Shown: positions 8,685 through 31,657, numbered from the stretch's first letter. The stretch: 32,128 bases of DNA from Candidatus Acidiferrales bacterium (GCA_035624135.1 DASPSB010000163.1:1-32128), one strand, 5' to 3'. Numbers and translations are program-made. The notes: a model not told the origin generated them from the letters alone.

Positions 8685-10484
8685 CTACTTTGGGGATTCG
8701 AGAGTGACTTCTATCTCGGTACTGCCGGGCTCGTCTTTTGAGGGCTCTTTAGCGACGATCTTGAGCCTGCTCGTGTGATCGGGCTGGATGATTCCGGCGG
8801 TGTCGCCGTCCCAGACGTGCTTGCCATCTTTGCTCGCGATGTGGACGTGAATGGTGTGCTGGCCCACCGGGATGGCATTGTCTTTCTTCTCGAATTTTCC
8901 CTTGGTCGTAATTCCTGCGGTGAATACATTCCGCTTTTCTTCCAGCTTCTCCTGAAGAAATGCCTTGCCATCCACGGTGATGTCGAGCGTTCCATGGCTG
9001 AACGGGAAGTGGCATTCGACGTCCAGCTTGGAGAGAACAACCTCGGCAGGCGCCGTGGGAGCGGGCTTCGCGGCAGGGGCCGCTTGGTCCGGAGCAGGAG
9101 TCGCGTCAGCAGTTGCCGGCGGCGCGCTGCGCTGCGGAGCAGCGGGCGGAGGAGATTTTGCCGCGGCGGCATTGTCGCGCGCGCGCTTCTTGGGAGCGGC
9201 GGCCGCAGGCGCCGATTCGCCGGCCGGCTTGGATTCTTCGGTTACCTGCGCCGGAGCACTCTCCACTGCAGTGGATGAGGTTGCCTCCGGCGCAGCTTCA
9301 GTCGAAGGCGTTGCTGTCGTCGGGATCACGGCAGGAGCCACGACGGGAACAGGCGCGGGCGGCGGATTCTGCTCCGCCGTGGGATGCATGCGAATCCATA
9401 GGCCTACACCGATGATCAGAACGAGCAAGACTCCAACACCAGCGAAAATCTTGCCGGTATTGCGCTTGCCGGATGACGCGGCTTGCGCGCGCGAAGGACG
9501 GCGCGAGAGGAATTGATCGGTGGAGACGGCGCGCGTCTTGGCGTTGGGATCGACGGGGGCGGGTGCGGAGGCGGCTCCGCCGGTGCGCGTGGCCTCGATG
9601 CGGCGCGAGGGCAACGGGAAAGGTTCTGTGCTTTCCGGCTTGGAAGCCTGCTTGGTGGCCAGCGGACGACCGGCCTTGACGGCTTCCAGATCCGCGGCCA
9701 GCTCGCCGCAGGCGGGGTATCGGTTCTCGGGATTTTTGGCCAGACAGCGCATGAGGATTTCGTCGAGGTCTTTGGGCAGATCAGTCTTGGCGATGCTGGG
9801 CCGCACCGGATTTTCAAAGGCGACTTGGAACGAAGTGATGGTGACCGTGTCGCCGGGAAATGGTTTTTTGCCCGTGAGCATCCAGTAGAGGACGGCGCCG
9901 AGCGAAAAGATGTCGCTGCGGCCGTCGATAGCGCCCCCACGGAACTGTTCCGGCGACATATAGGAGGGAGTGCCGAGCGAGGTGCCCTCCTGGGTGAGCT
10001 CGGTGCCTTCCATACGCGCGATGCCAAAATCGGCGATTTTGGCCTGGCCGTCGGGAGTGACGAGGATATTGGGCGGCTTGATGTCGCGATGGACCACGCC
10101 GTTCTTGTGGGCGTATTCGAGGGCGCGGGCCACCTGGATGCCAATGTCGAGCAGGAGTTCGAGCGGAAGCTGAACGGTGGGTCCCAGGAGCAGATTGAGC
10201 GGGCGGCCCTCGACGAACTCCTGAACAATGTAGGGCTGGCCGTACTGGTCTTCGGCAATGTCGTGGATGGCGACGATGCCGGGATGGGAAAGGCGTCCGG
10301 CAGCCTGAGCTTCGCGATTGAAGCGCTGCTTGAACTTGGCGATATCCTGCGGAGAGGCATTGGTGGTGAGGATCATCTTGATGGCCACGACGCGGCCGAT
10401 CTGGGTGTCGCGGGCGCGGTAAACGACGCCCATAGCGCCGCGGCCCAATTCGTCGATGACCTCGTAGCGACCGATGTTCTGCAT
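8685..10484 (-). CDS. Hanks-type Ser/Thr protein kinase with one TM helix, Pro/Ala-rich linker and extracytoplasmic C-terminal domain
   Basis: The track ORF is 8685..10523, and the ATG at 10484 (MQNIGRYEV) is the preferred start. Kinase motifs are GRGAMGVVY, VAIK, HRDIKPPN, DFG and GTPSYMSPE. The TM helix is IFAGVGVLLVLIIGVGLWI. The PA-rich linker is encoded at about 9042-9383. A ~118-aa beta-rich C-terminal domain follows. Confidence 0.9.
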   Translation of the reverse strand: MQNIGRYEVIDELGRGAMGVVYRARDTQIGRVVAIKMILTTNASPQDIAKFKQRFNREAQAAGRLSHPGIVAIHDIAEDQYGQPYIVQEFVEGRPLNLLLGPTVQLPLELLLDIGIQVARALEYAHKNGVVHRDIKPPNILVTPDGQAKIADFGIARMEGTELTQEGTSLGTPSYMSPEQFRGGAIDGRSDIFSLGAVLYWMLTGKKPFPGDTVTITSFQVAFENPVRPSIAKTDLPKDLDEILMRCLAKNPENRYPACGELAADLEAVKAGRPLATKQASKPESTEPFPLPSRRIEATRTGGAASAPAPVDPNAKTRAVSTDQFLSRRPSRAQAASSGKRNTGKIFAGVGVLLVLIIGVGLWIRMHPTAEQNPPPAPVPVVAPAVIPTTATPSTEAAPEATSSTAVESAPAQVTEESKPAGESAPAAAAPKKRARDNAAAAKSPPPAAPQRSAPPATADATPAPDQAAPAAKPAPTAPAEVVLSKLDVECHFPFSHGTLDITVDGKAFLQEKLEEKRNVFTAGITTKGKFEKKDNAIPVGQHTIHVHIASKDGKHVWDGDTAGIIQPDHTSRLKIVAKEPSKDEPGSTEIEVTLESPK

Positions 10485-10689
10485 CGCTTCGGCTCCGGAG
10501 AAAAGCGCAGCATACTTTATCACCGCACGGCGGTGGTGGGGCAGGGCGTGCCCGGGCCAAGTGCGCCGACACAGGCACTACCGCCGGAGTGGCGGGCGAT
10601 CGAGCGCTACCAAGCGTGGCCGGGGTATGCTAGGCTGGATGGGCAAAGCTGGTCTTTCGCTTCCGAAACATTCAATTTGAGGCGCTACC

Positions 10690-13034: not shown

Positions 13035-13056
13035 TAGGGTGCGGGCGCTACGGTGC

Positions 13057-13086
13057 TTGACGCGCAGGCGGCTGAGGAGCAGCATC
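13057..13086 (+). promoter_or_regulatory. promoter-like motif TTGACG-N17-GCAGCATC upstream of the FecR-like gene
   Basis: TTGACG lies at 13057-13062, a 17-nt spacer follows, and CAGCAT lies at 13080-13085 within GCAGCATC. It sits 22 nt downstream of palindrome B copy 2 and 69 nt upstream of the ATG at 13155. Confidence 0.35.
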
Positions 13087-13154
13087 TCTCAATAGGCAGC
13101 CGGCCGGCCACTGAGGCTGCCTTCGCGACGTTCGAGTTAGTCTGGGAGGTGCCT

Positions 13155-14630
13155 ATGTCCCGCCGGGTGGTTTCGTTTCTCGCGGTTCTTTCTGCGATTG
13201 CCTGCCTGATTCTGATTCCGGCCGCGCACGCCGGCGAGGTGAGCCATGCGCGGATCGTCCGGCTCAGCTACGCCTTGGGTGACGTGCAGATGAGCGCGGA
13301 CGGCGCGGCGGGCTGGCACAAGGCGATTGCCAACACTCCGGTGCGGGAAGGAAACAGCCTGGCGACGGGCGACGGGCGCGCGGAGGTGGAGTTCGAAACC
13401 GGCGCGATGGCCTGGGTCGCATCGAACACGGTGCTCGAATTCCCGCAGCTCATTTTGGAGGACGGCGCGAAGAACACGCAGCTCGCCGTGAAGCAGGGCA
13501 CTGCGACGTTTTATGTGCAGCCGGGGCGGCACGATTCGTTTGCGGTCGAGGCCGGCCCGTTGTGGATCGTGACAACGGAGAGTGCGCGGTTCCGCGTGGA
13601 TGTTTTTGATGACGGCGCGGCCGTGAGCGTGTTGCGCGGGGCCGTGAGTGTGACGGGGAACGGTGTGACGCAACACCTGAACGGTCATTCGACGCTGGCC
13701 CTGCGCTCCGAAGCACAGGGCAGCGGCGTTGTGAGCGCAAATCCCCGGAGCGACGCGTGGGACCGCTGGGTTTCCGACCGCTTCACGTCGGTCGATGAGG
13801 CGCGGTTGAATTCGACGGACAACCTGAAAGCGCCGTTCGGCTACGGAATGGCGGACCTCAGCTTCTACGGCGGCTGGGTGATGGTGCCGGGATACGGCCT
13901 AGGGTGGCAGCCGTTTGGAGTAGGGGCGGGTTGGTCGCCGTTTTTCAACGGGTATTGGGACAGCTTCGGGCTGTTGGGTGGCCCCACGTGGATCAGCTAC
14001 GACCCTTGGGGCTGGCTGCCGTATCACTACGGCGGATGGGTGTTTTCTCCGATTTACGGCTGGGTGTGGGCGCCAGGCAGCGCGGGCTTTGCCGTGTGGA
14101 GTCCGGCCACAGTGTTCTGGATGACGACGCCCTCGGGGATCGGCTGGGTGGCGCGGGCGCCGGGTGAAACTTTGAAAGGCACCGCGCAAAATCTCGCGCA
14201 GGGAGTGGTGACGAATACATCGGCCGGCATGCTGGCGGGTTCGCGCAACTCCATTCTGCGCGGAGCGGACGCCGCGAAAGTGCAGATGATCGGCGAATGG
14301 AAGGGCGAGGGCGAGCTGAGCCGAATCGTGCAGCAGGCGCAGGGCCGGCAAGCATCACAAGCGACAACCAAGGCGGCGCTGAATATTCGGAGCGCGCAGC
14401 GGATGCCGGCAAACGGAGCGCTGCGGATTGCCAGCGCCGGAATGTTCGCAGGACACGTACAAGTTTACGAGCCGCCGATCCCGCCGGGACATCTCGGGCA
14501 CAACGCAGCCGCCCGCGAGAATCAGGGGTCGGCGGCATTGCCGACGGGAACGCCAACCGGAACTCGTAGCGAGGGCGCTGCGGGTCGTCCACAGAGCGCA
14601 ACAGGCGACGCCGGCAAAGTAAAACCTTAG
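13155..14630 (+). CDS. secreted FecR-domain protein with DUF6600-like (YxWGxW) Trp/Gly-rich domain
   Basis: The track ORF is 13053..14630. The ATG at 13155, preceded by GGGAGG, gives the signal peptide MSRRVVSFLAVLSAIACLILIPAAHA. The FecR-like segment reads ARIVRLSYALGDVQ...GNSLATGDGRAEVEFETGAMAWVASNTVLEF. The Trp-rich segment reads PWGWLPYHYGGWVFSPIYGWVWAPG. Confidence 0.75.
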   Translation: MSRRVVSFLAVLSAIACLILIPAAHAGEVSHARIVRLSYALGDVQMSADGAAGWHKAIANTPVREGNSLATGDGRAEVEFETGAMAWVASNTVLEFPQLILEDGAKNTQLAVKQGTATFYVQPGRHDSFAVEAGPLWIVTTESARFRVDVFDDGAAVSVLRGAVSVTGNGVTQHLNGHSTLALRSEAQGSGVVSANPRSDAWDRWVSDRFTSVDEARLNSTDNLKAPFGYGMADLSFYGGWVMVPGYGLGWQPFGVGAGWSPFFNGYWDSFGLLGGPTWISYDPWGWLPYHYGGWVFSPIYGWVWAPGSAGFAVWSPATVFWMTTPSGIGWVARAPGETLKGTAQNLAQGVVTNTSAGMLAGSRNSILRGADAAKVQMIGEWKGEGELSRIVQQAQGRQASQATTKAALNIRSAQRMPANGALRIASAGMFAGHVQVYEPPIPPGHLGHNAAARENQGSAALPTGTPTGTRSEGAAGRPQSATGDAGKVKP

Positions 14631-20844: not shown

Positions 20845-22212
<1,368 letters not shown>

Positions 22213-22311
22213 GCCGCCGGTGCGCACTCCCATCCAGCCATGCGCCCGACAGGCGAGCAAAGGCGTTGCAAACCCGGCGAATCTCTGGCACAAACGTCCC
22301 TTTTGGGGAAA

Positions 22312-22362: not shown

Positions 22363-22788
22363 ATGGACAACGCCGTAAAGCTGAATTTTCCGAGCGACCC
22401 GCGGTATCTCGGGGTGGTCCGCGGGGCCGTTGAGCGCTTCGCGGCCCTGGTCGGGTTCGACGAAGAGGATTGCCGGTGGATCACGCTGGCCGTGCACGAA
22501 GCGTTGACGAACGTGATTCGCCACGCGTATCACAACCAGTATGACCGGCCCGTCGAGGTGCGCCTTCGTGAGCGCGACGAAGGCATGGAGGTCGTCATGG
22601 TGGATCACGGCACCGGTGTGAAGCAGGAGCAGATGTGCGGGCGCCCGCTCGACGACGTCCGTCCCGGCGGCCTGGGTCTGCACATGATCCGCGAAATTAT
22701 GAGCGAAACGGACTACCTGCCCCTGGAGGGGCGGAATGAATTGCACCTGTTCAAGAAGAGGGGCTCGAAGACTTCGGTAGGAGAGTGA
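22363..22788 (+). CDS. RsbW/SpoIIAB-like anti-sigma-type serine protein kinase (GHKL ATPase)
   Basis: 141 aa. It has the N-box HEALTNVIRHAY, G1 box DHGTG and G2 box GGLGLH. Size and architecture match partner-switching kinases. The stop lies 3 nt before the STAS gene. Confidence 0.85.
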   Translation: MDNAVKLNFPSDPRYLGVVRGAVERFAALVGFDEEDCRWITLAVHEALTNVIRHAYHNQYDRPVEVRLRERDEGMEVVMVDHGTGVKQEQMCGRPLDDVRPGGLGLHMIREIMSETDYLPLEGRNELHLFKKRGSKTSVGE

Positions 22789-22791
22789 TCG

Positions 22792-23127
22792 ATGCAAATT
22801 GCTACGCGGCAGCAGGGCAACAGCACGCTGGTGGACGTACAGGGCGACATTGACCTGTATAATTCGCCCGAGGTGCGCAAAATCATTCTCGAGGAACTGA
22901 AGGAAAAGAAAGTGTCGCGCCTGATCGTCAACCTGACGGGCGTCCGTTACATCGACAGCTCGGGGGTCGCCTCGCTGGTGGAAGGGCTGAAGGTTTCCCG
23001 CAATATGTCCAGCCGCTTTATGCTCTACGGCCTCAGTCCGGCGGCGCGTGAAGTGCTCGAACTCTCGCGGCTGATTCGCGTTTTCGAGGTGTACGGCACT
23101 GAGCAGGAAGCGCTGCAGGCGAAATAA
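22792..23127 (+). CDS. STAS-domain protein (anti-sigma-factor antagonist / MlaB-like)
   Basis: 111 aa with the SpoIIAA/RsbV-like pattern VDVQGDIDLYNSPEVR...LTGVRYIDSSGVASLVEG. The conserved phosphorylatable Ser context (DSSG) is present. Confidence 0.85.
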   Translation: MQIATRQQGNSTLVDVQGDIDLYNSPEVRKIILEELKEKKVSRLIVNLTGVRYIDSSGVASLVEGLKVSRNMSSRFMLYGLSPAAREVLELSRLIRVFEVYGTEQEALQAK

Positions 23128-23157
23128 GGCCAAGTCGACGGGAGGGAATCCAGACGA

Positions 23158-23952
23158 ATGGCATTCTTCGAAAGCATCGGGCGCAACACCATCGGCGGTC
23201 TCGCCTATGTGGGCGGCCTCGCGCGGCTCAGCGGGCGCGCCGCGTACTACACGCTCATCGGTCCTTTTCGCGGCAAGGCCCTGCGCTGGAGCCGCGCATT
23301 CCACCAGGCCATGGCTGTCGGCGTGGAAGCGCTGCCGATTCTTTCGGTCATTACCTTCTTTGTGGGGCTGATTCTCGCGCTTCAGGGCGCTTATGAACTG
23401 CGCAAATTCGGCGCGCTGCAGTTTGTGGCCGCGGGCGTGGGCGTCTCCATGACGCGCGAACTCGGGCCGCTCATGACTGCCATCGTGGTGATCGGGCGTT
23501 CCGGTTCGGCATTCGCCGCCGAAATCGGGACGATGAAGGTGACGGAGGAAATCGACGCCCTCACGACGATGGCGCTCAATCCCGTGCAGTTTCTGGTGAC
23601 GCCGAAGTTTCTGGCCATGATCCTGATGCTTCCCTGCCTGACCACCTGGGCGGACTTCATGGGAGTGATGGGGGGCGCGGTGTTCGGAGTCACCGGGGCC
23701 AGCTTCACTTTCGGCGGATACGTCCAGGCCACGCTCGATGCGCTGCTGAAGCGCGACATCATCGGCGGGCTGATCAAAGCCGTCATGTTCGGCGCGGTGA
23801 TCACCGCGGTGGGATGTCATGAAGGGTTCGAGACGGGCGGAGGCGCGGAAGAGGTCGGCCGCTCGACGACTTCGGCCGTGGTGATGTCCATCTTCCTGGT
23901 GATTATCGTGGACCTGATTTTCACATCCCTCTTCTACGTTCTGGAACGATGA
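23158..23952 (+). CDS. mlaE: MlaE-family ABC transporter permease
   Basis: 264 aa with the MlaE/Ttg2B pattern (RELGPLMTAIVVIGRSGSAFAAEIGTMKVTEEIDAL, VVP/ITP-KFLA). GGGAGGG lies upstream. The stop overlaps the mlaF start (ATGA). Confidence 0.9.
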   Translation: MAFFESIGRNTIGGLAYVGGLARLSGRAAYYTLIGPFRGKALRWSRAFHQAMAVGVEALPILSVITFFVGLILALQGAYELRKFGALQFVAAGVGVSMTRELGPLMTAIVVIGRSGSAFAAEIGTMKVTEEIDALTTMALNPVQFLVTPKFLAMILMLPCLTTWADFMGVMGGAVFGVTGASFTFGGYVQATLDALLKRDIIGGLIKAVMFGAVITAVGCHEGFETGGGAEEVGRSTTSAVVMSIFLVIIVDLIFTSLFYVLER

Positions 23953-24770
23953 GCGCGCCTGCGGATAGCGACAAGGCGCTCTCGGTGCGCGACCTGCGCG
24001 TTCGCTACGGCGAACGCGAAATCCTGCACGGCATCAGCTTCGACGTCACGCGGGGTGAGACGCTCGTGATTCTGGGCGGTTCCGGCTCGGGCAAAAGCAC
24101 GCTGCTGCGCACCCTGGTGGGGCTGCAGCCGACCACCTCCGGCGAGGTGTGGATCCGCGGACAGGATATCGCCAAATTGAGCGAAGAGGAGCTGGACGAA
24201 ACGCGGAAGAAGATCGGCCTTTCCTTCCAGGGTGGCGCGCTCTTTGGCTCAATGACGGTCGGAGAAAACGTATGCCTGCCTCTCCGCGAGCATACCCAGC
24301 TCGAAGAAAGCACCATCCAGATCATCATGCGGCTCAAGCTCGAGCAGGTGGGCCTGGCCGGATTTGAGAACTACATGCCCTCGCAGTTGAGCGGAGGAAT
24401 GAAGAAGCGCGCCGCGGTGGCCCGGGCCATGGCCATGGACCCGGAAATCCTGTTCTTCGACGAACCCTCCGCGGGGCTCGATCCCATCATCGCTGCGGGA
24501 ATTGACAACCTGATTCTGAAGCTGAAAAAAGCGTTCCGCATGACCATCATCGTGGTGACGCACGAACTGGCCAGCGCCTTTCTGATTGCCGACAGCATGC
24601 TGCTGATCAACAAGGGCGACATCGTGGCCCACGGCACAAGAGAGGAGATGCAGAACAGCACGCATCCGCGCGTGCGCCAGTTCCTCGACCGCGTGCCCGA
24701 GCCGGAAGTCGCCGAGGAAATGGATTATCTGCAGATGCTCACGGGCGAAGCGCCGCCCCGGGCGCTCTAG
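23949..24770 (+). CDS. mlaF: MlaF-family ABC transporter ATP-binding protein
   Basis: 273 aa. Motifs are Walker A GGSGSGKST, signature LSGGMKKR, Walker B LFFDEPSAGLDP and H-loop THE. It is translationally coupled to mlaE. Confidence 0.9.
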   Translation: MSAPADSDKALSVRDLRVRYGEREILHGISFDVTRGETLVILGGSGSGKSTLLRTLVGLQPTTSGEVWIRGQDIAKLSEEELDETRKKIGLSFQGGALFGSMTVGENVCLPLREHTQLEESTIQIIMRLKLEQVGLAGFENYMPSQLSGGMKKRAAVARAMAMDPEILFFDEPSAGLDPIIAAGIDNLILKLKKAFRMTIIVVTHELASAFLIADSMLLINKGDIVAHGTREEMQNSTHPRVRQFLDRVPEPEVAEEMDYLQMLTGEAPPRAL

Positions 24771-24775
24771 CCGGC

Positions 24776-24800
24776 CGCGGTTCGCCGCGTTTTCCTTTCC
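24776..24800 (+). terminator. short intrinsic-terminator-like hairpin after mlaF
   Basis: CGCGG-TTCG-CCGCG (5-bp GC stem with a UUCG tetraloop, 24776-24789) is followed by TTTTCCTTTCC. It starts 6 nt after the mlaF stop. The stem is short, so function is uncertain. Confidence 0.4.
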
Positions 24801-24905
24801 AAGACTTAGAAGCCCGCAACTCTCAAGTAGCGCGCGTTCCAGCCGATAAGAGAACAGAGCGCATCCGAGCACTGGTGTCGGGGCAAATTTCCCCGCCGCG
24901 ATAGC

Positions 24906-26768
24906 ATGAAGACCTATCTCAAAATTGCCGTGCCCTGGGGGATCGGCCTCTCGCTGGCTCTCGTGATTGGGGCCGCCGCGCTCTCCTTCCGCAACCTGGA
25001 TGAATATCGCCAGAACGCCGAATGGGTGGCCCATACGCATGTGGTGATCGAACGCCTCGAGACGCTCCGCAGCGAGGTGCTGAAGGTGGAGAACGCGCGC
25101 CGGGGCTATGTGCTCACCGGCGATCCGCAATTTGCCACGCGCCTCTCGGCCGGGCGCGCCGAAATAGAGAAAACTCTGGGCTCCCTGCGCACCCTCACCG
25201 CGGACAATGCCTCCCAGCAAAAAGAGTTGGAGGGGCTTCAAGCGCTCGTTCAATCGCGGCTCGATCTTCTGGATCGCTCCCTGGCGATCCACCGCGCGGG
25301 CCAGCCGGATGACGCAGAGCAGTCCGCCCTGACTCTTCCCGGCGCGGAACTTACCAACCGCATCCTCACGGCCCTCGATCGCATGGGCAACCGGGAGCAG
25401 GATCTGCTGCGGGAGCGCAGCGAGCAGGCGCAACGCAGCGCACTGAAATCCCGCATCGCGCTGGCTTTGGCCATGTTCACCACGATTGCGCTGATTCTGG
25501 CGGCATTCTCGCTCCTGCGCCGGGAAGTCCGCGAACGCGTGCGGGCCGAAGGGGAACTCCGGGACCTGGCAACCACCCTGGAACAAAAGGTGGCCGAGCG
25601 CACCTCCATGTTGGAAACCCATACGAAGACCCTTCGGGAACAGGCCGCCCTCCTCGATCTCGCTCACGACTCCATTTTCGTGCGCGAAATGACCAACGCG
25701 ATCCGCTTCTGGAATCGCGGTGCCGAGGAGACCTACGGATGGTCGAGGGAGGAAGCGCTCGGAAAAGTTACCCACACCATGCTCCAGACCCAATTTCCCG
25801 AGCCACTCACGAAAATTGAGGAGACCCTGCTCGCCGAAGGCCATTGGGAAGGAGAATTGATCCACACGCGCCGCGACGGCTCCTGCATCGTCGTGGACAG
25901 CCGGTGGGCTCTGCAGCAGGGCGCCGATGGCATCCCCACAGGCGTCCTCGAGCTCAACCGGGACATCACCGAACGGAAGCGATCGGAGGACGAGATTCGC
26001 TCCCTCAACCAGGCCCTCGAACGGCGCGTCGCCGAGCGCACCGCTGAGCTCGAAGCGTTCACTTCCTCGGTGGCGCACGACCTCCGCGCTCCCTTGCGCC
26101 ACGTGGATGGGTTCAGCCGCATCCTGGAAGAAGAATACGCGCCGCAACTTGGCATCGAGGGCCAGAAGCTCGTCGCGCGTGTGCGCCGGGCCACGCAGCA
26201 TATGGGCGAGCTGGTCGATGACCTCTTGAACCTCTCCCGCGTTTCCCGCCGCGAACTCTCGCCGCTGGTGACGGACCTGAATCCGCTGGTTCGCGAGGTG
26301 ATCAACGGGCTGCAGCCCGCCTGCCAGGGCCGCCACGTGGACTTCCGCGTCGGCTTGCTTCCTTTCGCCGAATGCGACCCCGGCCTCATGCGCCAGGTGT
26401 TCGCCAATCTGCTGGGCAATGCTGTGAAGTTCACGCGTCCGCGCGATCCAGCCATCATCGAAGTCGGCCAATCGGACCACAACGGCAACCGGGCCATATT
26501 CATCCGCGACAACGGCGTGGGGTTCAGCATGAAGTACGCGGACAAACTGTTTGGAGTGTTCCAGCGCTTCCATCGCGTCGAGGATTTTGAAGGCACCGGC
26601 GTAGGTCTGGCCACCGTGCTGCGCATCGTCCAGAAGCACAACGGCCGCATTTGGGCCGAGGCGGAAGTGGATCGGGGCGCGGCATTTTATTTCACGCTGG
26701 AAGGCCTGGAAGATCGGAGATCCCCGGAATCTTCCCGGCCGGCAGGAGGGCTCCATGCCAGTGGGTGA
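24906..26768 (+). CDS. sensor histidine kinase with periplasmic CHASE3 domain, PAS domain, HisKA and HATPase_c
   Basis: 620 aa. TM1 is [17 protein letters not shown]. The CHASE3-like region reads [25 protein letters not shown]...[12 protein letters not shown]2 is [18 protein letters not shown]. The PAS region contains [12 protein letters not shown]. The H-box is [10 protein letters not shown]. The ATPase has N, G1 (DNGVGF) and G2 (GTGVGL) boxes. Confidence 0.9.
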
Positions 26769-27216
26769 CGTCGATATTCTGCTCGTCGAAGACAGCCCGG
26801 AGGACGCGGAGCTCACGCTGTACAGCTTGCGCCGCAACAACCTTGCCAATCGCATTCACTGGGCCAAGGACGGAGAAGAGGGCTTGGACTTTTTATTCTG
26901 CCGCGGGCCCTATGCGGATCGCTCCTTCCAGCATCCTCCCAAGGTGGTTCTGTTGGATCTCAAGCTGCCCAAAGTGGACGGGCTCGAGGTCCTCCGGCAG
27001 ATGAAGGAAGACCCGCGGACACGGCCCATTCCGGTGGTCGTGCTCACTTCCTCTAGGGAGGAGGCGGACGTCGTCCGCGGCTATCGCAACGGCGCCAACA
27101 GCTATGTGCAGAAACCGGTGGATTTCGACCAATTCCGTGAAGCTGTGCGTCAACTTGGCCTCTACTGGATGGTCACCAACGAGCCGCCCCCCGATGCCAC
27201 GTTCGCACGCAGGTAG
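26755..27216 (+). CDS. stand-alone response-regulator receiver protein (Rcp1-like)
   Basis: 153 aa with [26 protein letters not shown] (phospho-acceptor Asp), VVVLTSS and YVQKP. It has no output domain. GGCAGGAGGG lies upstream. It overlaps the histidine kinase 3' end by 14 nt. Confidence 0.9.
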
Positions 27217-27221
27217 TTGCT

Positions 27222-29945
27222 ATGCAAAGACCCACGGAAGCCGTCCAACAGACCCCGGAAACTGAGTCGCGCGTCTTCCGCCTCCTGTTTGTCGAGGACG
27301 ACCCTGCCGACCTCGAGCTGATTCAGCGCGAACTTTCCGGTCGAGGCGTGAAATTCGAGGGCGAAGTGGTGTGCCAGCCGCAATCCTTCCGCGAGCGCAT
27401 TCGTAATTCGTCCTTCGACGCGGTCCTGTCGGACTTCCGGCTGCCCGGCTGGAATGGCATGGATGTGCTGCGCGAACTCCGGGGCCTGGGCCTGGAAATC
27501 CCGTTTTTGCTCATCACCGGAACGCTGGGAGAAGAAAAAGCCGTCGAATGCATGCGGATGGGCGCCACAGATTGCATCCTCAAGGACCGTCTGGCCCGCC
27601 TGCCAATGGCCCTGCACAATGCCGTGGACGGCTGGGAAATGCGCGAGAGACAAAAGCGCATTGCCGAGGAGTTGTGGACCAGCGAGTCGAAGCTCGGCCT
27701 GCTGCTCTCCCAGTTGCCCGCGATCATTTGGACCTCGGACCGGGCACTGCGTCTCACTTCGCTCACCGGCGCCGGCTTGGCGGCACTGCCCGAAGGAGCT
27801 TGGCAGCGGCGCGCCCGGGACTTGAACACCGATGCATCGCATCCGGCGGCGGCCGCGCACCCGCGCGCACTGGCCGGCGAATCCGTGGAATTCGAAAACG
27901 AGATCGAGGGGCGCGCCTATTGGAGCCGCGTGGAACCGCTCCGCGACGTGGCCGGAGAGACGAGCGGCTGCCTCGGCTTCGCGCTCGATATCACCGAGAA
28001 GAAGCGCATCGAGATGGAATCCCAGCGCCGCGCCCGCGAGCTTTGGCGCGCAAATGAGACACTCGCCGCCATGGTGGCCAACGCTCCCGTCGCCATCGTG
28101 GCGATGGACCATGCAGGCCGCGTTCGCATCTGGAATCCGGCGGCGGAGCGCATGTTCGGCTGGACGGCGAACGAGGTGCTCGGCGGCCCGGTTCCCTATC
28201 TGCCTTCGGAGCGCCACGGCGAACATCAGGTGTTCCGCGAAATCCTCAAACAGGGCGGCAGCATTTCCAACGTGGAAACCCAGCGGATGAGAAAACACGG
28301 AACGCTTCTCGATGTGAGCTTGTCGGCAGCTTCCGTGGAGCTCGGAGCCGGCGCCGAAGACGCTTCCAGCGAACTGGAGATAATCGCCGTACTCACGGAC
28401 ATTACCGCGCGGAAGCTGGCGGAAGCGGAAATGCTCAGGCTGAGCACGGCCATCCAGCAATCTGCGGAAGCCGTGATGATCGCCGATACCGACGGCTTCA
28501 TCCGCTACGTCAATCCCGCCTTCAGCGCCATGAGCGGATATTCCCCGGCCGAAGCCGTGGGCAAACGCACCAATTTGCTGCGTTCCGGACGGCATGACAA
28601 GAGCTTCTACGAAAATTTGTGGAAGACGATTGTGAGCGGTCAGACCTGGCGCGGGGAATTCGAAAACATCCGCAAGGACGGTTCTCCGCTGCCCATGGAG
28701 GCTTCCATCACTCCGGTGCGCGGCCCACGCGGCGTGATTACCTCGTTCATCTGCATCGCGCAGGATATCTCCGAGCGGAAGACGCTCGAGCGCCAGCTCC
28801 TCCAGGCGCAGAAGTCTGAAGCCATCGGGCAACTGGCCGGCGGCATTGCTCACGACTTCAACAACGTACTGGCGGCTATCCTGGGAATGGCCGAGTTGGG
28901 CCAGCTCGAAGCGCCGGAAGGCACCCGCATCCGCGAACGGCTCCAGAAAATCTGCCATCATACTGGCCGCGCGGTGGCGCTCACGCGCCAGCTCCTGGCA
29001 TTTTCCCGCCGGCAGCAGCTCGAGCGGCGTCCCATCAACCTGAATCTCTCCGTCAACGAAGTCGCCAGCCTGCTCAGCGACTCGCTCGGCAAAGACGTGG
29101 AATTCGTGACCAACCTGGCTCCTGAACTGGCCAGCGTCTTCGCGGACCCGGCGCAGATCGAGCAGGTGCTCATGAATCTGTGCGTGAACGCCCGCGATGC
29201 CATGCCCTCCGGTGGCCGGCTGACCATCTCCACGGGCAAGGTGCAGTTCGATCAGGAGGCCTGCCGGACGCGTCCCGGGCTCGCGCCGGGCGAATTCGTG
29301 TGTCTGACGGTCACGGATACAGGGATGGGGATGGACGCGCAGACGCTGGGTCGCATCTTCGAGCCGTTTTTCACCACCAAGCCTCCCGGACGCGGGACCG
29401 GATTGGGATTGGCCACCGTCTACGGCGTGGTCAAACAGCACGGAGGTCATATTGACGTGATGAGTTCGCCGGGCGACGGCACTACCTTCCAGCTCTACTT
29501 TCCCGTTTCGCTGCCCGCCAAGCCGGGCGCGGAAGCGCCCGCCGACGGAGAGCCGGTCACGGGCGGCAGGGAAACCATCCTGCTGGCCGAAGACCACGAA
29601 GGATTGCGCGAACTGGTGTGCGAGTCGCTCGAATCGCTCGGATACTGTGTGTTGGCGGCCTGCGATGGCGAGGAGGCTGTCGAGATCTTCCGCCGGAATT
29701 CCGGCAAGGTGGATCTGCTGATCCTCGACGTGATTATGCCGCGGCTTCGCGGCCCCGACGCCTACAAACGAATTCGCGACCTCAGCGGCTCCATCCCCGT
29801 GCTCTTCTGTACGGGCTACAGTTCCGACTCGGCCCAGGTCGAAATCATTTCCGGCCACCCCGTACTCCAGAAACCCTACCAGACGCGGGAACTGGCGCGC
29901 ACCGTCCGCTTTCTCCTCGACCAGCGTTTGCAATCTCAAAGTTGA
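27222..29945 (+). CDS. hybrid sensor histidine kinase: REC - multiple PAS - HisKA - HATPase_c - REC
   Basis: 907 aa. The N-terminal receiver has LLFVEDDPADLEL...DAVLSDFRLPG. At least three PAS-like segments are visible (IWNPAAERMFGW, YVNPAFSAMSGY). The H-box is IAHDFNNVL. The N-box is NLCVNARDAM, G1 is DTGMGM and G2 is GTGLGL. The C-terminal receiver has ILLAEDHE...LLILDVIMP. It starts 5 nt after the receiver gene stop. Confidence 0.9.
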   Translation: MQRPTEAVQQTPETESRVFRLLFVEDDPADLELIQRELSGRGVKFEGEVVCQPQSFRERIRNSSFDAVLSDFRLPGWNGMDVLRELRGLGLEIPFLLITGTLGEEKAVECMRMGATDCILKDRLARLPMALHNAVDGWEMRERQKRIAEELWTSESKLGLLLSQLPAIIWTSDRALRLTSLTGAGLAALPEGAWQRRARDLNTDASHPAAAAHPRALAGESVEFENEIEGRAYWSRVEPLRDVAGETSGCLGFALDITEKKRIEMESQRRARELWRANETLAAMVANAPVAIVAMDHAGRVRIWNPAAERMFGWTANEVLGGPVPYLPSERHGEHQVFREILKQGGSISNVETQRMRKHGTLLDVSLSAASVELGAGAEDASSELEIIAVLTDITARKLAEAEMLRLSTAIQQSAEAVMIADTDGFIRYVNPAFSAMSGYSPAEAVGKRTNLLRSGRHDKSFYENLWKTIVSGQTWRGEFENIRKDGSPLPMEASITPVRGPRGVITSFICIAQDISERKTLERQLLQAQKSEAIGQLAGGIAHDFNNVLAAILGMAELGQLEAPEGTRIRERLQKICHHTGRAVALTRQLLAFSRRQQLERRPINLNLSVNEVASLLSDSLGKDVEFVTNLAPELASVFADPAQIEQVLMNLCVNARDAMPSGGRLTISTGKVQFDQEACRTRPGLAPGEFVCLTVTDTGMGMDAQTLGRIFEPFFTTKPPGRGTGLGLATVYGVVKQHGGHIDVMSSPGDGTTFQLYFPVSLPAKPGAEAPADGEPVTGGRETILLAEDHEGLRELVCESLESLGYCVLAACDGEEAVEIFRRNSGKVDLLILDVIMPRLRGPDAYKRIRDLSGSIPVLFCTGYSSDSAQVEIISGHPVLQKPYQTRELARTVRFLLDQRLQSQS

Positions 29946-30042
29946 GCAATCCTCCGCAAGCGATTTTCGGATGCCGTGGTATACTCCCGCATCCTGGCGG
30001 CGGCAGGGAGTGCAGGAGCGCCGCCACAGGCCGGGCGTAACT

Positions 30043-31014
30043 ATGGATGCGAGGAAAGAGCAGGCCTTCGTCGGCGTTTTTGTGATCATTGCCGCGGGCC
30101 TGCTGATTGCCACGATTTTTGCCATCGGCGGGGCTTTCGGACGCGCCGGGCAAACCTACCTGGTTTACTTCAAGAATGCGGGCGGGCTCGAGCCCGGCTC
30201 CATTGTGCGCTACGCCGGCATCCGCGTGGGCCGCGTGGACAAACTCCGGATCGATCCCAAAGATCCGTCGCGCGTCATCATGGAGATCGGCCTGGAGCCG
30301 GGAGTTCCCGTCAAGACGGACAGCCTCGCTAAGATTTCCAGCCTCTCCGCTCTCGGCGAAAATTTTCTCGAGATCTTGCCGGGCAAGCCGGATTCGCCGC
30401 CGGCCCGCTCCGGCTCCGTGCTGCCCTCCAAGGAATTTTTCGGCATCAACGACGTGGCGGACATCCTGAACGATCTGGGGCCAAAGGCCGAGGATCTGGT
30501 GAGCAACCTGAACGACCGCGTCGTGCAGCTCAAGCTGACCATCGACCGCGTGAACGACCTGCTCAACGACCAGAACCGCGCTCACGTCGCCGGCTCGCTC
30601 GACAACCTGAACGGCATGCTCGCCGAAAACCGCCCGCACATTAAGAGCGCTCTCGGCCACGTGGACGATGTGTCCGCCAAGCTCGGGCCCACCGTGGACC
30701 AGTTCAAACAGACCGCCAAGCAGGCAGACGACACGCTCAAGAAAATCGACGATATCCTCGGCGAGAACCGCAAGGATCTGCACGAGTCCATCGCCCAATT
30801 GCACAAAACCCTGAGCGACGCCACCACCCTGGTGGATCAGCTCAACCGCACGCTCAACACGAACGGCGAGAGCATCGACGAGACGCTCGACAACATCCGC
30901 CTGGCCACCGAAAACCTGCGCGAGTTTACTGATACCATCCGCACGCGGCCCTACACCCTCATCCGCACCGCGGAGCCGCCGGAGCACAAGCCGGGGGAGG
31001 GTTCCAAGCCGTGA
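30043..31014 (+). CDS. mlaD: MlaD/MCE-family protein with long C-terminal helical extension
   Basis: The track ORF is 29971..31014. The ATG at 30043 gives MDARKEQAFVGVFVIIAAGLLIATIFAIGG (TM anchor). The MCE core reads GLEPGSIVRYAGIRVGRVDKLRIDP. About 190 aa of heptad-like helical sequence follow (NDLLNDQNR...LDNLNGML...LKKIDDILGEN...). Confidence 0.85.
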   Translation: MDARKEQAFVGVFVIIAAGLLIATIFAIGGAFGRAGQTYLVYFKNAGGLEPGSIVRYAGIRVGRVDKLRIDPKDPSRVIMEIGLEPGVPVKTDSLAKISSLSALGENFLEILPGKPDSPPARSGSVLPSKEFFGINDVADILNDLGPKAEDLVSNLNDRVVQLKLTIDRVNDLLNDQNRAHVAGSLDNLNGMLAENRPHIKSALGHVDDVSAKLGPTVDQFKQTAKQADDTLKKIDDILGENRKDLHESIAQLHKTLSDATTLVDQLNRTLNTNGESIDETLDNIRLATENLREFTDTIRTRPYTLIRTAEPPEHKPGEGSKP

Positions 31015-31027
31015 GAGAGGTCCTGGC

Positions 31028-31657
31028 ATGAGCCTTCCTAAATCCGCCTGTGCGGCGGCAGCGCTCGCCGTAGGGGCAGTGCTGCTTCTGACCGGCTGCG
31101 GCGCGGCGCGCCCCATCAAATACTATTCGCTCGATCCGCCGGAGGTCGCCGCGGCGGGACAGCGGACGGACGCATCGTTGCTCATCGCCCATTTCCATGC
31201 TCCCACTCTTTACCGCGACACGCGCATTGTCTACCGCAACGGCGGGAACGAGATGGGCCTGTACGAGGAACATCGCTGGGTGGAAGCCCCGGCGTTGATG
31301 GTCGAAGAGATGGTGCTCCAATACCTGCGCCGCAGCGGCCGCTACAAGAGCGTGCAGAACATTTCTTCGAACGCGCAGGGGGATTACATCGTTCATGGCC
31401 GCGTCGAGCGCTTCGAACAGGTGGAGGGCAAGCCGCTTTCTGCGCGCGTCTGGCTGCGCCTGAGCCTCTACGACCCCAAGGCCGGCGCCACCGTTTGGGC
31501 GGAAAGTTACGAGCGCGACGAACAGGCGGCCGGAGACGATTTTGCCTCGATTGTCGCTGCGCTCGATAAGAATCTGCAGCAGGGTGTGATCCAGCTCGCC
31601 GGAGGCATCGATCAGTACATCACGGCGCACCCGCGCCCGGCAGAATCATCCAAGTAG
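31028..31657 (+). CDS. PqiC/YmbA-like (DUF330) ABC-transport auxiliary lipoprotein
   Basis: 209 aa. The signal peptide has a lipobox, LLLTGC. Also present are PIKYYSL, a WVEAP context and a size typical of DUF330 lipoproteins. GAGAGAGG lies upstream, and it starts 13 nt after the mlaD stop. Confidence 0.75.
   Translation: MSLPKSACAAAALAVGAVLLLTGCGAARPIKYYSLDPPEVAAAGQRTDASLLIAHFHAPTLYRDTRIVYRNGGNEMGLYEEHRWVEAPALMVEEMVLQYLRRSGRYKSVQNISSNAQGDYIVHGRVERFEQVEGKPLSARVWLRLSLYDPKAGATVWAESYERDEQAAGDDFASIVAALDKNLQQGVIQLAGGIDQYITAHPRPAESSK

Follow-up and report, generated by a model that had tools for sequence, protein, structure and literature searches.

Gene content of the locus

The DNA analyzed here is a stretch of 32,128 nucleotides from a Candidatus Acidiferrales bacterium (GCA_035624135.1, DASPSB010000163.1:1-32128), referred to as a whole as the window, and between positions 22363 and 31657 it contains the genes of an Mla/MCE-type lipid transporter together with genes of signal transduction. 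As judged from its protein families, the window carries an ATP-binding cassette (ABC) lipid transporter of the Mpc/Mla MCE type, the operon of which opens with a dedicated partner-switching module made up of a serine kinase and a SpoIIAA-type STAS protein. Nine plus-strand open reading frames (ORFs) had been described in an earlier note on this DNA; all nine are present where that note had placed them, and Pfam and NCBIfam agree with the domain assignments of all nine proteins, in which REC is a receiver domain, HK a histidine kinase and Hpt a domain of multistep phosphorelays:

22363-22788, plus strand: GHKL serine kinase of the RsbW/SpoIIAB type, 141 aa (HATPase_c_2, PF13581, E = 8e-26)
22792-23127, plus strand: single-domain STAS protein, 111 aa (PF01740, 3e-19; above the TIGR00377 cut-off)
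23158-23952, plus strand: MlaE-family permease (PF02405, 7e-78; TIGR00056, 241 bits against a cut-off of 212)
23949-24770, plus strand: ABC ATPase of the MlaF type, extended at the C terminus (closest PDB entries: MlaF chains)
24906-26768, plus strand: membrane HK, CHASE3 (periplasmic)-PAS-HisKA-HATPase_c by Pfam, H-box at H391; first gene of an inserted cassette
26755-27216, plus strand: stand-alone receiver (REC only), 153 aa (PF00072, 1e-19); second cassette gene
27222-29945, plus strand: hybrid kinase, REC-PAS-PAS-HisKA-HATPase_c-REC, 907 aa, without Hpt (Pfam, NCBIfam), H-box at H544; third cassette gene
30043-31014 (ORF opens at 29971), plus strand: MCE/MlaD protein, 323 aa, with a long helical C-terminal "needle" (PF02470, 6e-22)
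31028-31657, plus strand: PqiC/MpcA-like outer-membrane lipoprotein, ABC_trans_aux (PF03886, 2e-19), with an N-terminal signal sequence and LTGC lipobox

The gene junctions are likewise as the note had them, with 3 nt between the kinase and STAS genes, an ATGA overlap of mlaE and mlaF, a 14-nt overlap of the HK and receiver genes, and 5 nt between the receiver and hybrid kinase genes, and the end of the STAS gene is separated from the start of mlaE by 30 nt. The start of mlaD is most likely at 30043, which would give a protein of 323 aa as in the relatives. The top NCBIfam match of the ATPase is the MlaF model, at 235 bits against an equivalog cut-off of 441, and its top PDB matches are the MlaF chains of A. 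baumannii, P. aeruginosa, and E. coli, the alignment reaching residue 267 with the C-terminal extension included. The helical tail of MlaD gives Mce4_CUP1 and apolipoprotein-like helical matches in Pfam, and the protein matches TIGR00996 below its cut-off.

The partners of the E. coli-type Mla pathway, the periplasmic chaperone MlaC and the outer membrane protein MlaA, are not found among the Pfam-scanned ORFs of the window. The Pfam scan, which included the other large ORFs, also reveals no sigma factor and no Hpt domain in the window, and tblastn searches of the window with five PP2C variants at E <= 10 gave matches to REC domains only. As had been noted, the cassette of receivers and kinases has no output domain detectable by Pfam or NCBIfam.

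The kinase and the STAS protein

The closest solved structures to the kinase are RsbW (8e-13) and SpoIIAB, and its N, G1, and G2 ATP-binding boxes (E46, N50, R53-H54-A55, D81, G83, P101-G105) are invariant in 17 homologues. Its earlier designation as an RsbW-like kinase is appropriate at the superfamily level, where it has the HATPase_c_2 domain and intact boxes, but not at the level of equivalogs, as it scores below the NCBIfam cut-offs for both RsbW models (65.6 bits against 145 and 57.9 against 155) and for SpoIIAB (53 against 135). The STAS protein contains the phospho-acceptor motif D55-S56-S57-G58, of which S56 aligns with the phosphoserine of SpoIIAA (Ser58 position), and the DSSG sequence is kept in 85 of 86 orthologues.

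The STAS gene had been counted among the signalling genes, separate from the transporter. In the E. coli locus, however, the MlaB protein of mlaFEDCB is a STAS protein that binds MlaF, and fusions of STAS with MlaE also exist. Used as a concatenated query, the STAS and MlaE sequences align as a unit to plasmid-borne "MlaE family" proteins of Proteobacteria, and such fusions head operons of the same gene order in eight proteobacterial plasmid loci (the two that were checked with Pfam are STAS_2+MlaE). The fused STAS domains have D-T-G/A-G at the phospho-site, and neither a kinase nor a PP2C gene is found near the fusions in these eight loci. On a Methylocella tundrae plasmid (L096, 7797-8921) the gene after the ATPase encodes a 374-aa protein annotated as an auxiliary lipoprotein, with no separate MlaD annotated. 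Isom et al. (2017) mention MCE-lipoprotein fusions, and the protein may be of that kind.

Conservation of the kinase-STAS-MlaE order

Gene neighborhoods were surveyed by aligning kinase homologues and scanning one genome per species, which returned 80 loci that were then annotated with the window's own proteins. Judged by the names that its homologues carry, the organism of the window falls within the Acidobacteriota, in the Acidoferrum/Acidoferrales group. Seventy-five of them are scorable for the order of the kinase, STAS, and MlaE genes, and 38 from Acidobacteriota are scorable for the whole transporter. The three genes are found in the order kinase-STAS-MlaE, on the same strand and tightly spaced, in 73 of the 75 scorable species genomes, including 39/39 Acidobacteriota and 27/27 Planctomycetota, with kinase identities across the surveyed loci between 94% and about 35%. 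The order fails in the two weakest matches of the survey: one (L084) has the kinase and STAS genes only, and the other, from Methylacidiphilales (L088, 8720-10408), is a different protein, a single-chain GAF-PP2C-HATPase_c_2 fusion with no Mla genes nearby. That fusion unites phosphatase and kinase in one chain, as do HsbR and SypE. The linkage is thus not unique to this genome, and the view of the earlier note that the juxtaposition is not due to chance is borne out, as the kinase/STAS pair is tied to an Mla-type transporter across two phyla.

A contiguous six-gene operon, kinase-STAS-MlaE-MlaF-MlaD-lipoprotein, is present in 35 of the 38 scorable Acidobacteriota, and in these mlaD starts 25-50 bp after mlaF. 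The core also holds in two lineages in which unrelated genes are inserted between mlaE and mlaF. In one (L005, 7026-8987) the insertion is a gene for a GAF-PAS-GGDEF cyclase, and in the other (L007, 11809-14472) it encodes an 887-aa TPR/polysaccharide-deacetylase/caspase protein, and genes of the REC, REC-HD, and REC-PilZ types then follow. The operon appears to draw in signalling genes. Six operons that are 70-80% identical to those of Acidobacteriota (L015, L021, L026, L033, L036, and L046, two of them from the same bin) come from bins labelled Verrucomicrobiia, Limnocylindria (Chloroflexota), Cybelea, Dormiibacterota/Dormibacterota, and Eremiobacteraceae (Eremiobacterota), and are probably mis-binned Acidobacteriota contigs.

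Phosphatase genes and two-component input in relatives

In 33 related loci the kinase gene has a SpoIIE/PP2C gene no more than 10 kb away, and five arrangements are seen:

Arrangement 1: stand-alone PP2C gene, convergent, directly after the lipoprotein gene
Arrangement 2: stand-alone PP2C gene immediately upstream of the kinase gene (Bryobacterales/Solibacteraceae)
Arrangement 3: PAS-PP2C gene after the lipoprotein gene
Arrangement 4: REC-PP2C gene after the lipoprotein gene, with a convergent hybrid kinase containing Hpt
Arrangement 5: hybrid kinase (Hpt) and then REC-PP2C, both genes in the same direction

The cultured species Edaphobacter aggregans has, in GCA_003945235.1 (RSDW01000001.1, positions 1,361,833-1,382,279), a single eight-gene array, kinase-STAS-MlaE-MlaF-MlaD-lipoprotein-hybrid HK(Hpt)-REC_PP2C. 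Because these gene orders indicate that the third component of a partner switch was recruited to the operon repeatedly and independently, we regard them as strong evidence of a functional link. The loci are mutually related, such that the counts overstate the number of independent events, although this concern is reduced by the two deeply diverged phyla and the five PP2C arrangements. It had been pointed out that the window has neither a PP2C phosphatase nor a sigma factor, and both statements are true; the absence of PP2C, however, is a property of the window only, as relatives carry the gene beside the operon. The presence of two-component genes near the transporter, by comparison, extends to other lineages, where a hybrid HK(Hpt) and REC-PP2C are found right after the transporter genes, and from these gene orders two-component input to the switch is seen to be a recurring theme.

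The inserted two-component cassette

In the window, 5.2 kb of signalling genes stand between the two halves of the transporter; this feature is real but is not a conserved one, given the contiguous operons of 35 of the 38 Acidobacteriota. The HK-REC-(REC-HK) genes lie between mlaF and mlaD only in close relatives of the window (L003, L009-L011, and L093), in which kinase identity is at least 77%; with the window itself and a contig shared by P0008 and P0130, the cassette is kept in at least seven contigs of the lineage. Two other loci contain the same trio of HK, 153-aa REC, and REC-sensor-HK genes without Mla genes (L091, 6363-10493, and L092, 6436-10146), followed by response regulators of the LuxR and sigma-54 types. 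The family of the 153-aa receiver is very large and unusually conserved, the best 120 of 8000 scored candidates being 66-100% identical. Since the cassette is found elsewhere without Mla genes and is limited here to close relatives, the split of the transporter is best read as a derived, lineage-specific event and the contiguous operon as the ancestral arrangement, and by the same comparison the cassette is taken to be a generic, recurrent module of Terriglobia that was inserted between mlaF and mlaD in this lineage.

In a nested relative with an 82% identical kinase (L001/L002, 12409-13900), the kinase-STAS-MlaE-MlaF genes are followed directly by an M16 peptidase gene, and the cassette, mlaD, and the lipoprotein gene are missing. 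The whole five-gene block has been lost or moved there, possibly through an inversion that took in the M16 peptidase gene; in the window this peptidase gene is on the opposite strand.

The cassette had been called a three-gene phosphorelay, and it does have two kinases with H-boxes and three REC domains, but the relay is incomplete in the window. A multistep phosphorelay passes from an HK through REC and Hpt to a last REC that has an output domain, and here there is neither an Hpt nor an output domain. The mlaD and lipoprotein genes lie 3' of the cassette on the same strand; the insertion probably brought its own promoter, and these two genes are now likely to be transcribed together with the signalling genes.

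Non-coding elements and neighboring genes

Three non-coding elements are found in the region:

22258-22294, plus strand: conserved block CAAAGGCGTTGCAAA...AATCTCTGGCACAAA (also given as CGTTGCAAA...AATCTCTGGCAC), upstream of the kinase gene
24776-24800, plus strand: GC hairpin followed by a T-tract, 6 nt after the mlaF stop codon, at the left edge of the insertion; the L009 version has compensatory changes
24822-24852, plus strand: conserved motif CTCAAG-N17-GATAAGAG in the mlaF-HK spacer, present in the window, L009, L010, L011, and L003

Across the window and six relatives the core of the first block does not vary, but the intergenic DNA on either side has diverged, and the kinase-STAS-mlaEF unit may have its promoter or operator here. 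A scan for sigma-70 consensus promoters gave no sites, the block included. The block does not match the spacing of a sigma-54 promoter either, and a TGGCAC motif upstream of the kinase gene was considered as a sigma-54 site and rejected, as neither spacing nor order fits. The hairpin is possibly a partial terminator; a terminator scan of the region returned eight sites where 8.1 are expected, which is the level of chance. The 135-bp mlaF-HK spacer is found only where the cassette is present and is absent where mlaD directly follows mlaF, and its CTCAAG-N17-GATAAGAG motif may be an internal promoter of the inserted cassette, and so of mlaD and the lipoprotein gene. An Rfam scan of the window matched no family.

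In the window (20845-22212) and in all close relatives (L001-L004, L009-L011, and L093), the gene immediately before that of the kinase encodes citrate synthase, and a citrate synthase gene is near the kinase gene in some distant relatives (L007, L029, and L031) as well; this neighborhood is probably lineage synteny. Elsewhere in the window, a 612-aa Hanks-type Ser/Thr protein kinase (8685-10523, minus strand) and a FecR/DUF6600 protein (13053-14630, plus strand) have no evident link to the operon.

Relation to known systems

The transporter itself belongs to a known type, as represented by Mla, Mpc, and the "type I MCE + DUF330" operons. The E. coli MlaFEDB complex (PDB 6XBD and 6XGY; Kolich et al., 2020; PMC7367683) has in common with the window MlaE, MlaF with a C-terminal extension, an MCE protein, and an operon-encoded single-domain STAS protein with a hydroxyl residue at the SpoIIAA phospho-site. 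The STAS protein in E. coli, MlaB, is needed for the association of MlaF, and its Thr52, at the SpoIIAA phospho-site, is in the center of the MlaF interface, where a T52E change weakens binding (PMC7367683). No kinase is known for MlaB, and phosphoregulation was listed by the authors as an open question (PMC7367683). The systems differ in that E. coli MlaB is encoded last and without a kinase or phosphatase gene, whereas the STAS gene in the window precedes mlaE and is behind a kinase gene; in that the STAS protein of the window is SpoIIAA-like and is not detected as a member of the MlaB family; and in that the window has a long MlaD with a needle and a PqiC-like lipoprotein instead of MlaC and MlaA.

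There is a match in both architecture and gene order to the Mla-Pqi chimeric system Mpc of Brucella abortus (MpcEFDA), in which the permease MpcE has an N-terminal STAS domain and is encoded with MpcF, the 331-aa needle protein MpcD, and the PqiC-like MpcA (PMC12436622), and to the type I MCE + DUF330 operons known in Proteobacteria (PMC5561183). These have in common with the window the order STAS, MlaE, ATPase, needle MCE protein of ~320-330 aa, and PqiC-like lipoprotein. In the window, STAS likewise comes before MlaE (as a separate gene, 30 nt away), the MCE protein is a long needle protein, and the PqiC-like lipoprotein is last, with the likeness of the STAS domains being at the superfamily level. 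In Mpc and in the eight plasmid loci, however, STAS is fused to MlaE, its phospho-site reads D-T-G/A-G, and no kinase or PP2C gene is nearby, while the window has a separate SpoIIAA-like STAS protein and a dedicated kinase.

The switch components are most closely related, in both sequence and structure, to RsbV-RsbW-SigB and SpoIIAA-SpoIIAB-SigF of B. subtilis, with conservation of the catalytic boxes and the phosphoserine motif. Unlike in those systems, there is no sigma gene, the order is reversed such that the kinase gene precedes the STAS gene, and neither protein reaches the equivalog cut-offs. There are also known partner switches that take two-component input and have an output other than a sigma factor, in the form of HptB-HsbR-HsbA of Pseudomonas, SypE-SypA of Vibrio, and BtrU/V/W of Bordetella. 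They have in common with the present system a GHKL serine kinase, a phosphorylatable STAS protein as the output element, and a PP2C phosphatase, in many cases with a REC domain that takes its input from a hybrid kinase via Hpt, and this matches the loci of the window's relatives. They differ in that the proposed target here is an ABC lipid transporter encoded in the same operon, and in that kinase, phosphatase, and receiver are separate proteins here, the window being without the phosphatase.

A proposed phospho-switch on a lipid transporter

In the scheme that we propose, and to which, on the evidence of sequence and gene order, we assign slightly better than even confidence, the transporter has in the STAS protein a subunit that can be switched by phosphorylation: it would bind and license MlaF/MlaE, phosphorylation of Ser56 by the kinase would release it, and PP2C would reset the switch under PAS/REC control. 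Like MlaB in E. coli, unphosphorylated STAS protein would dock on the transporter at its cytoplasmic MlaF/MlaE portion, and it would license the assembly or the activity of the ATPase. The kinase would phosphorylate Ser56 on the docking face and so release the STAS protein, and the switch would be reset by a PP2C phosphatase, which in many relatives is encoded beside the operon (with no input domain, PAS, or REC) and in this lineage would be encoded outside the window. Sensory input would reach the phosphatase in several lineages by two-component signalling, from hybrid HK-Hpt to REC-PP2C. In published structures the STAS face that contacts the kinase in SpoIIAA-SpoIIAB is the one that contacts MlaF in MlaFB, so mutually exclusive binding is plausible. 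Post-translational control of lipid trafficking, as the earlier note had favored, is the most economical reading because the linkage of kinase and STAS protein to the transporter spans two phyla and two-component input recurs.

Several observations weigh against this proposal. By sequence the STAS protein is an antagonist of the SpoIIAA/RsbV type and not an MlaB family member: scored with its family profile, SpoIIAA reaches 70.8 bits, against 23.2 bits for E. coli MlaB and 2-12 bits for the MlaE-fused STAS domains, membership of the MlaB family (NF033618) was rejected as there is no NCBIfam MlaB match, and a PDB search does not recover E. coli MlaB and matches P. aeruginosa MlaB no better than E = 0.24. 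Given these scores, what the fusions and MlaB indicate is analogy and not orthology: this type of transporter has a STAS module in that position. The hydroxyl residue had to be discarded as a marker of a kinase, since MlaB and the fused STAS domains keep a Thr without a kinase nearby, and such a residue at the SpoIIAA site is not in itself evidence of phosphorylation. The window contains neither a PP2C phosphatase gene nor an Hpt domain, and the survey was seeded from the kinase, so that its counts are of kinase loci and not of the share of Mla systems that carry the module. Finally, many Planctomycetota loci have kinase-STAS-MlaE without MlaF, MlaD, or lipoprotein genes nearby (L071, 9929-11657; L050, L057, L060, L062-L064, L073, L076-L080, L083, and L085-L087), and nothing conserved and no Pfam matches are found among the ORFs 3' of mlaE in this subgroup. 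The tightest linkage is therefore between STAS and MlaE rather than STAS and MlaF.

The same genes could be read in other ways. The module could be a classical anti-sigma/anti-anti-sigma pair, in which the kinase sequesters a distant sigma factor and the STAS protein antagonizes it, the output being transcription rather than control of the transporter, and the Mla genes being either part of the same envelope-stress regulon or a source of input through the state of the transporter. The pair is indeed closest by sequence to RsbW/RsbV and SpoIIAB/SpoIIAA, and the STAS protein passes the cut-off of the TIGR00377 anti-sigma-antagonist superfamily, yet no sigma-70-family gene is present in the window or in any Pfam-annotated related locus, the kinase is under the RsbW and SpoIIAB equivalog cut-offs, and the pair stays next to mlaE in two phyla and despite rearrangements. 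Classical operons have the order STAS-kinase-sigma, with the sigma gene directly after that of the kinase, unlike the kinase-STAS-mlaE order here, and overall we regard the anti-sigma explanation as unlikely. We give a little less credence still to the kinase as the direct inhibitor, binding MlaF (or MlaE) as an anti-sigma factor binds sigma until unphosphorylated STAS protein, which itself would never bind the transporter, pulls it off. This logic is formally identical to that of RsbW/SpoIIAB, fits all of the synteny data, and accounts for a STAS protein that is SpoIIAA-like rather than MlaB-like; on the other hand, the sole STAS role known from experiment in this transporter family is direct binding to MlaF, and the fusion partner found for MlaE is STAS and not the kinase. 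That unrelated genes simply came to lie next to each other by chance is effectively refuted by the synteny survey, with the adjacency in 73 of 75 species genomes over two phyla and the recruitment of PP2C in five independent arrangements.

The role of the cassette is a separate matter from the phospho-switch proposed for the STAS protein, and we see nearly equal chances of its feeding the switch and of its being a passenger. The passenger explanation, to which we give just under even weight, is that a mobile paralogous module inserted itself between mlaF and mlaD, with unrelated response regulators as its targets and no part in lipid transport. It would account for the trio without Mla genes in L091 and L092, where LuxR- and sigma-54-type regulators follow, and it is in keeping with the size of the receiver family, the confinement of the insertion to relatives at or above 77% kinase identity, the conserved motif and hairpin that the mlaF-HK spacer has of its own, and the lack of the cassette in both L001 and L002. 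Against it are the retention of the cassette in at least seven contigs of the lineage, the independent placement of hybrid HK and REC-PP2C genes beside the operon in other Acidobacteriota, and the position of mlaD and the lipoprotein gene, now downstream of the cassette on the same strand.

Implications

Neither the transporter type nor partner switches with non-sigma outputs and two-component inputs are new. A prior description of a conserved coupling between a partner switch and an Mla transporter was not found in the searchable literature (subscription-only literature was outside the search): a phylogenomic survey of Mla systems mentions no kinase (PMC10665443), a survey of MCE neighborhoods covers Proteobacteria only, and a review of STAS-only proteins does not mention Mla. 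In its broadest form, our proposal is that the kinase/phosphatase pair directly gates an MCE lipid transporter via its STAS subunit, that this arrangement is the ancestral and near-universal one for the transporter in Acidobacteriota and is common in Planctomycetota, and that a two-component relay which senses the periplasm drives the phosphatase in several lineages, with envelope signals tuning lipid traffic within seconds. From the gene orders we would put the chances of this full scheme at even.

If this is true, it would be the first partner-switching system with the assembly or activity of an ABC transporter as its output, and would extend partner switching from the control of transcription to the control of a membrane transporter. 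The operon family supplies natural candidates, beside the transporter, for the kinase, the phosphatase, and the sensory input of Mla/MCE regulation, and it thereby offers a concrete candidate answer to how Mla/MCE transporters might be switched on and off by phosphorylation. The candidate switch genes are found in soil phyla that are abundant, and at least one species that carries them, Edaphobacter aggregans, is in culture, which makes the hypothesis directly testable. The coupling, if true, would also show how envelope lipid homeostasis is wired to signalling outside of the Proteobacteria.

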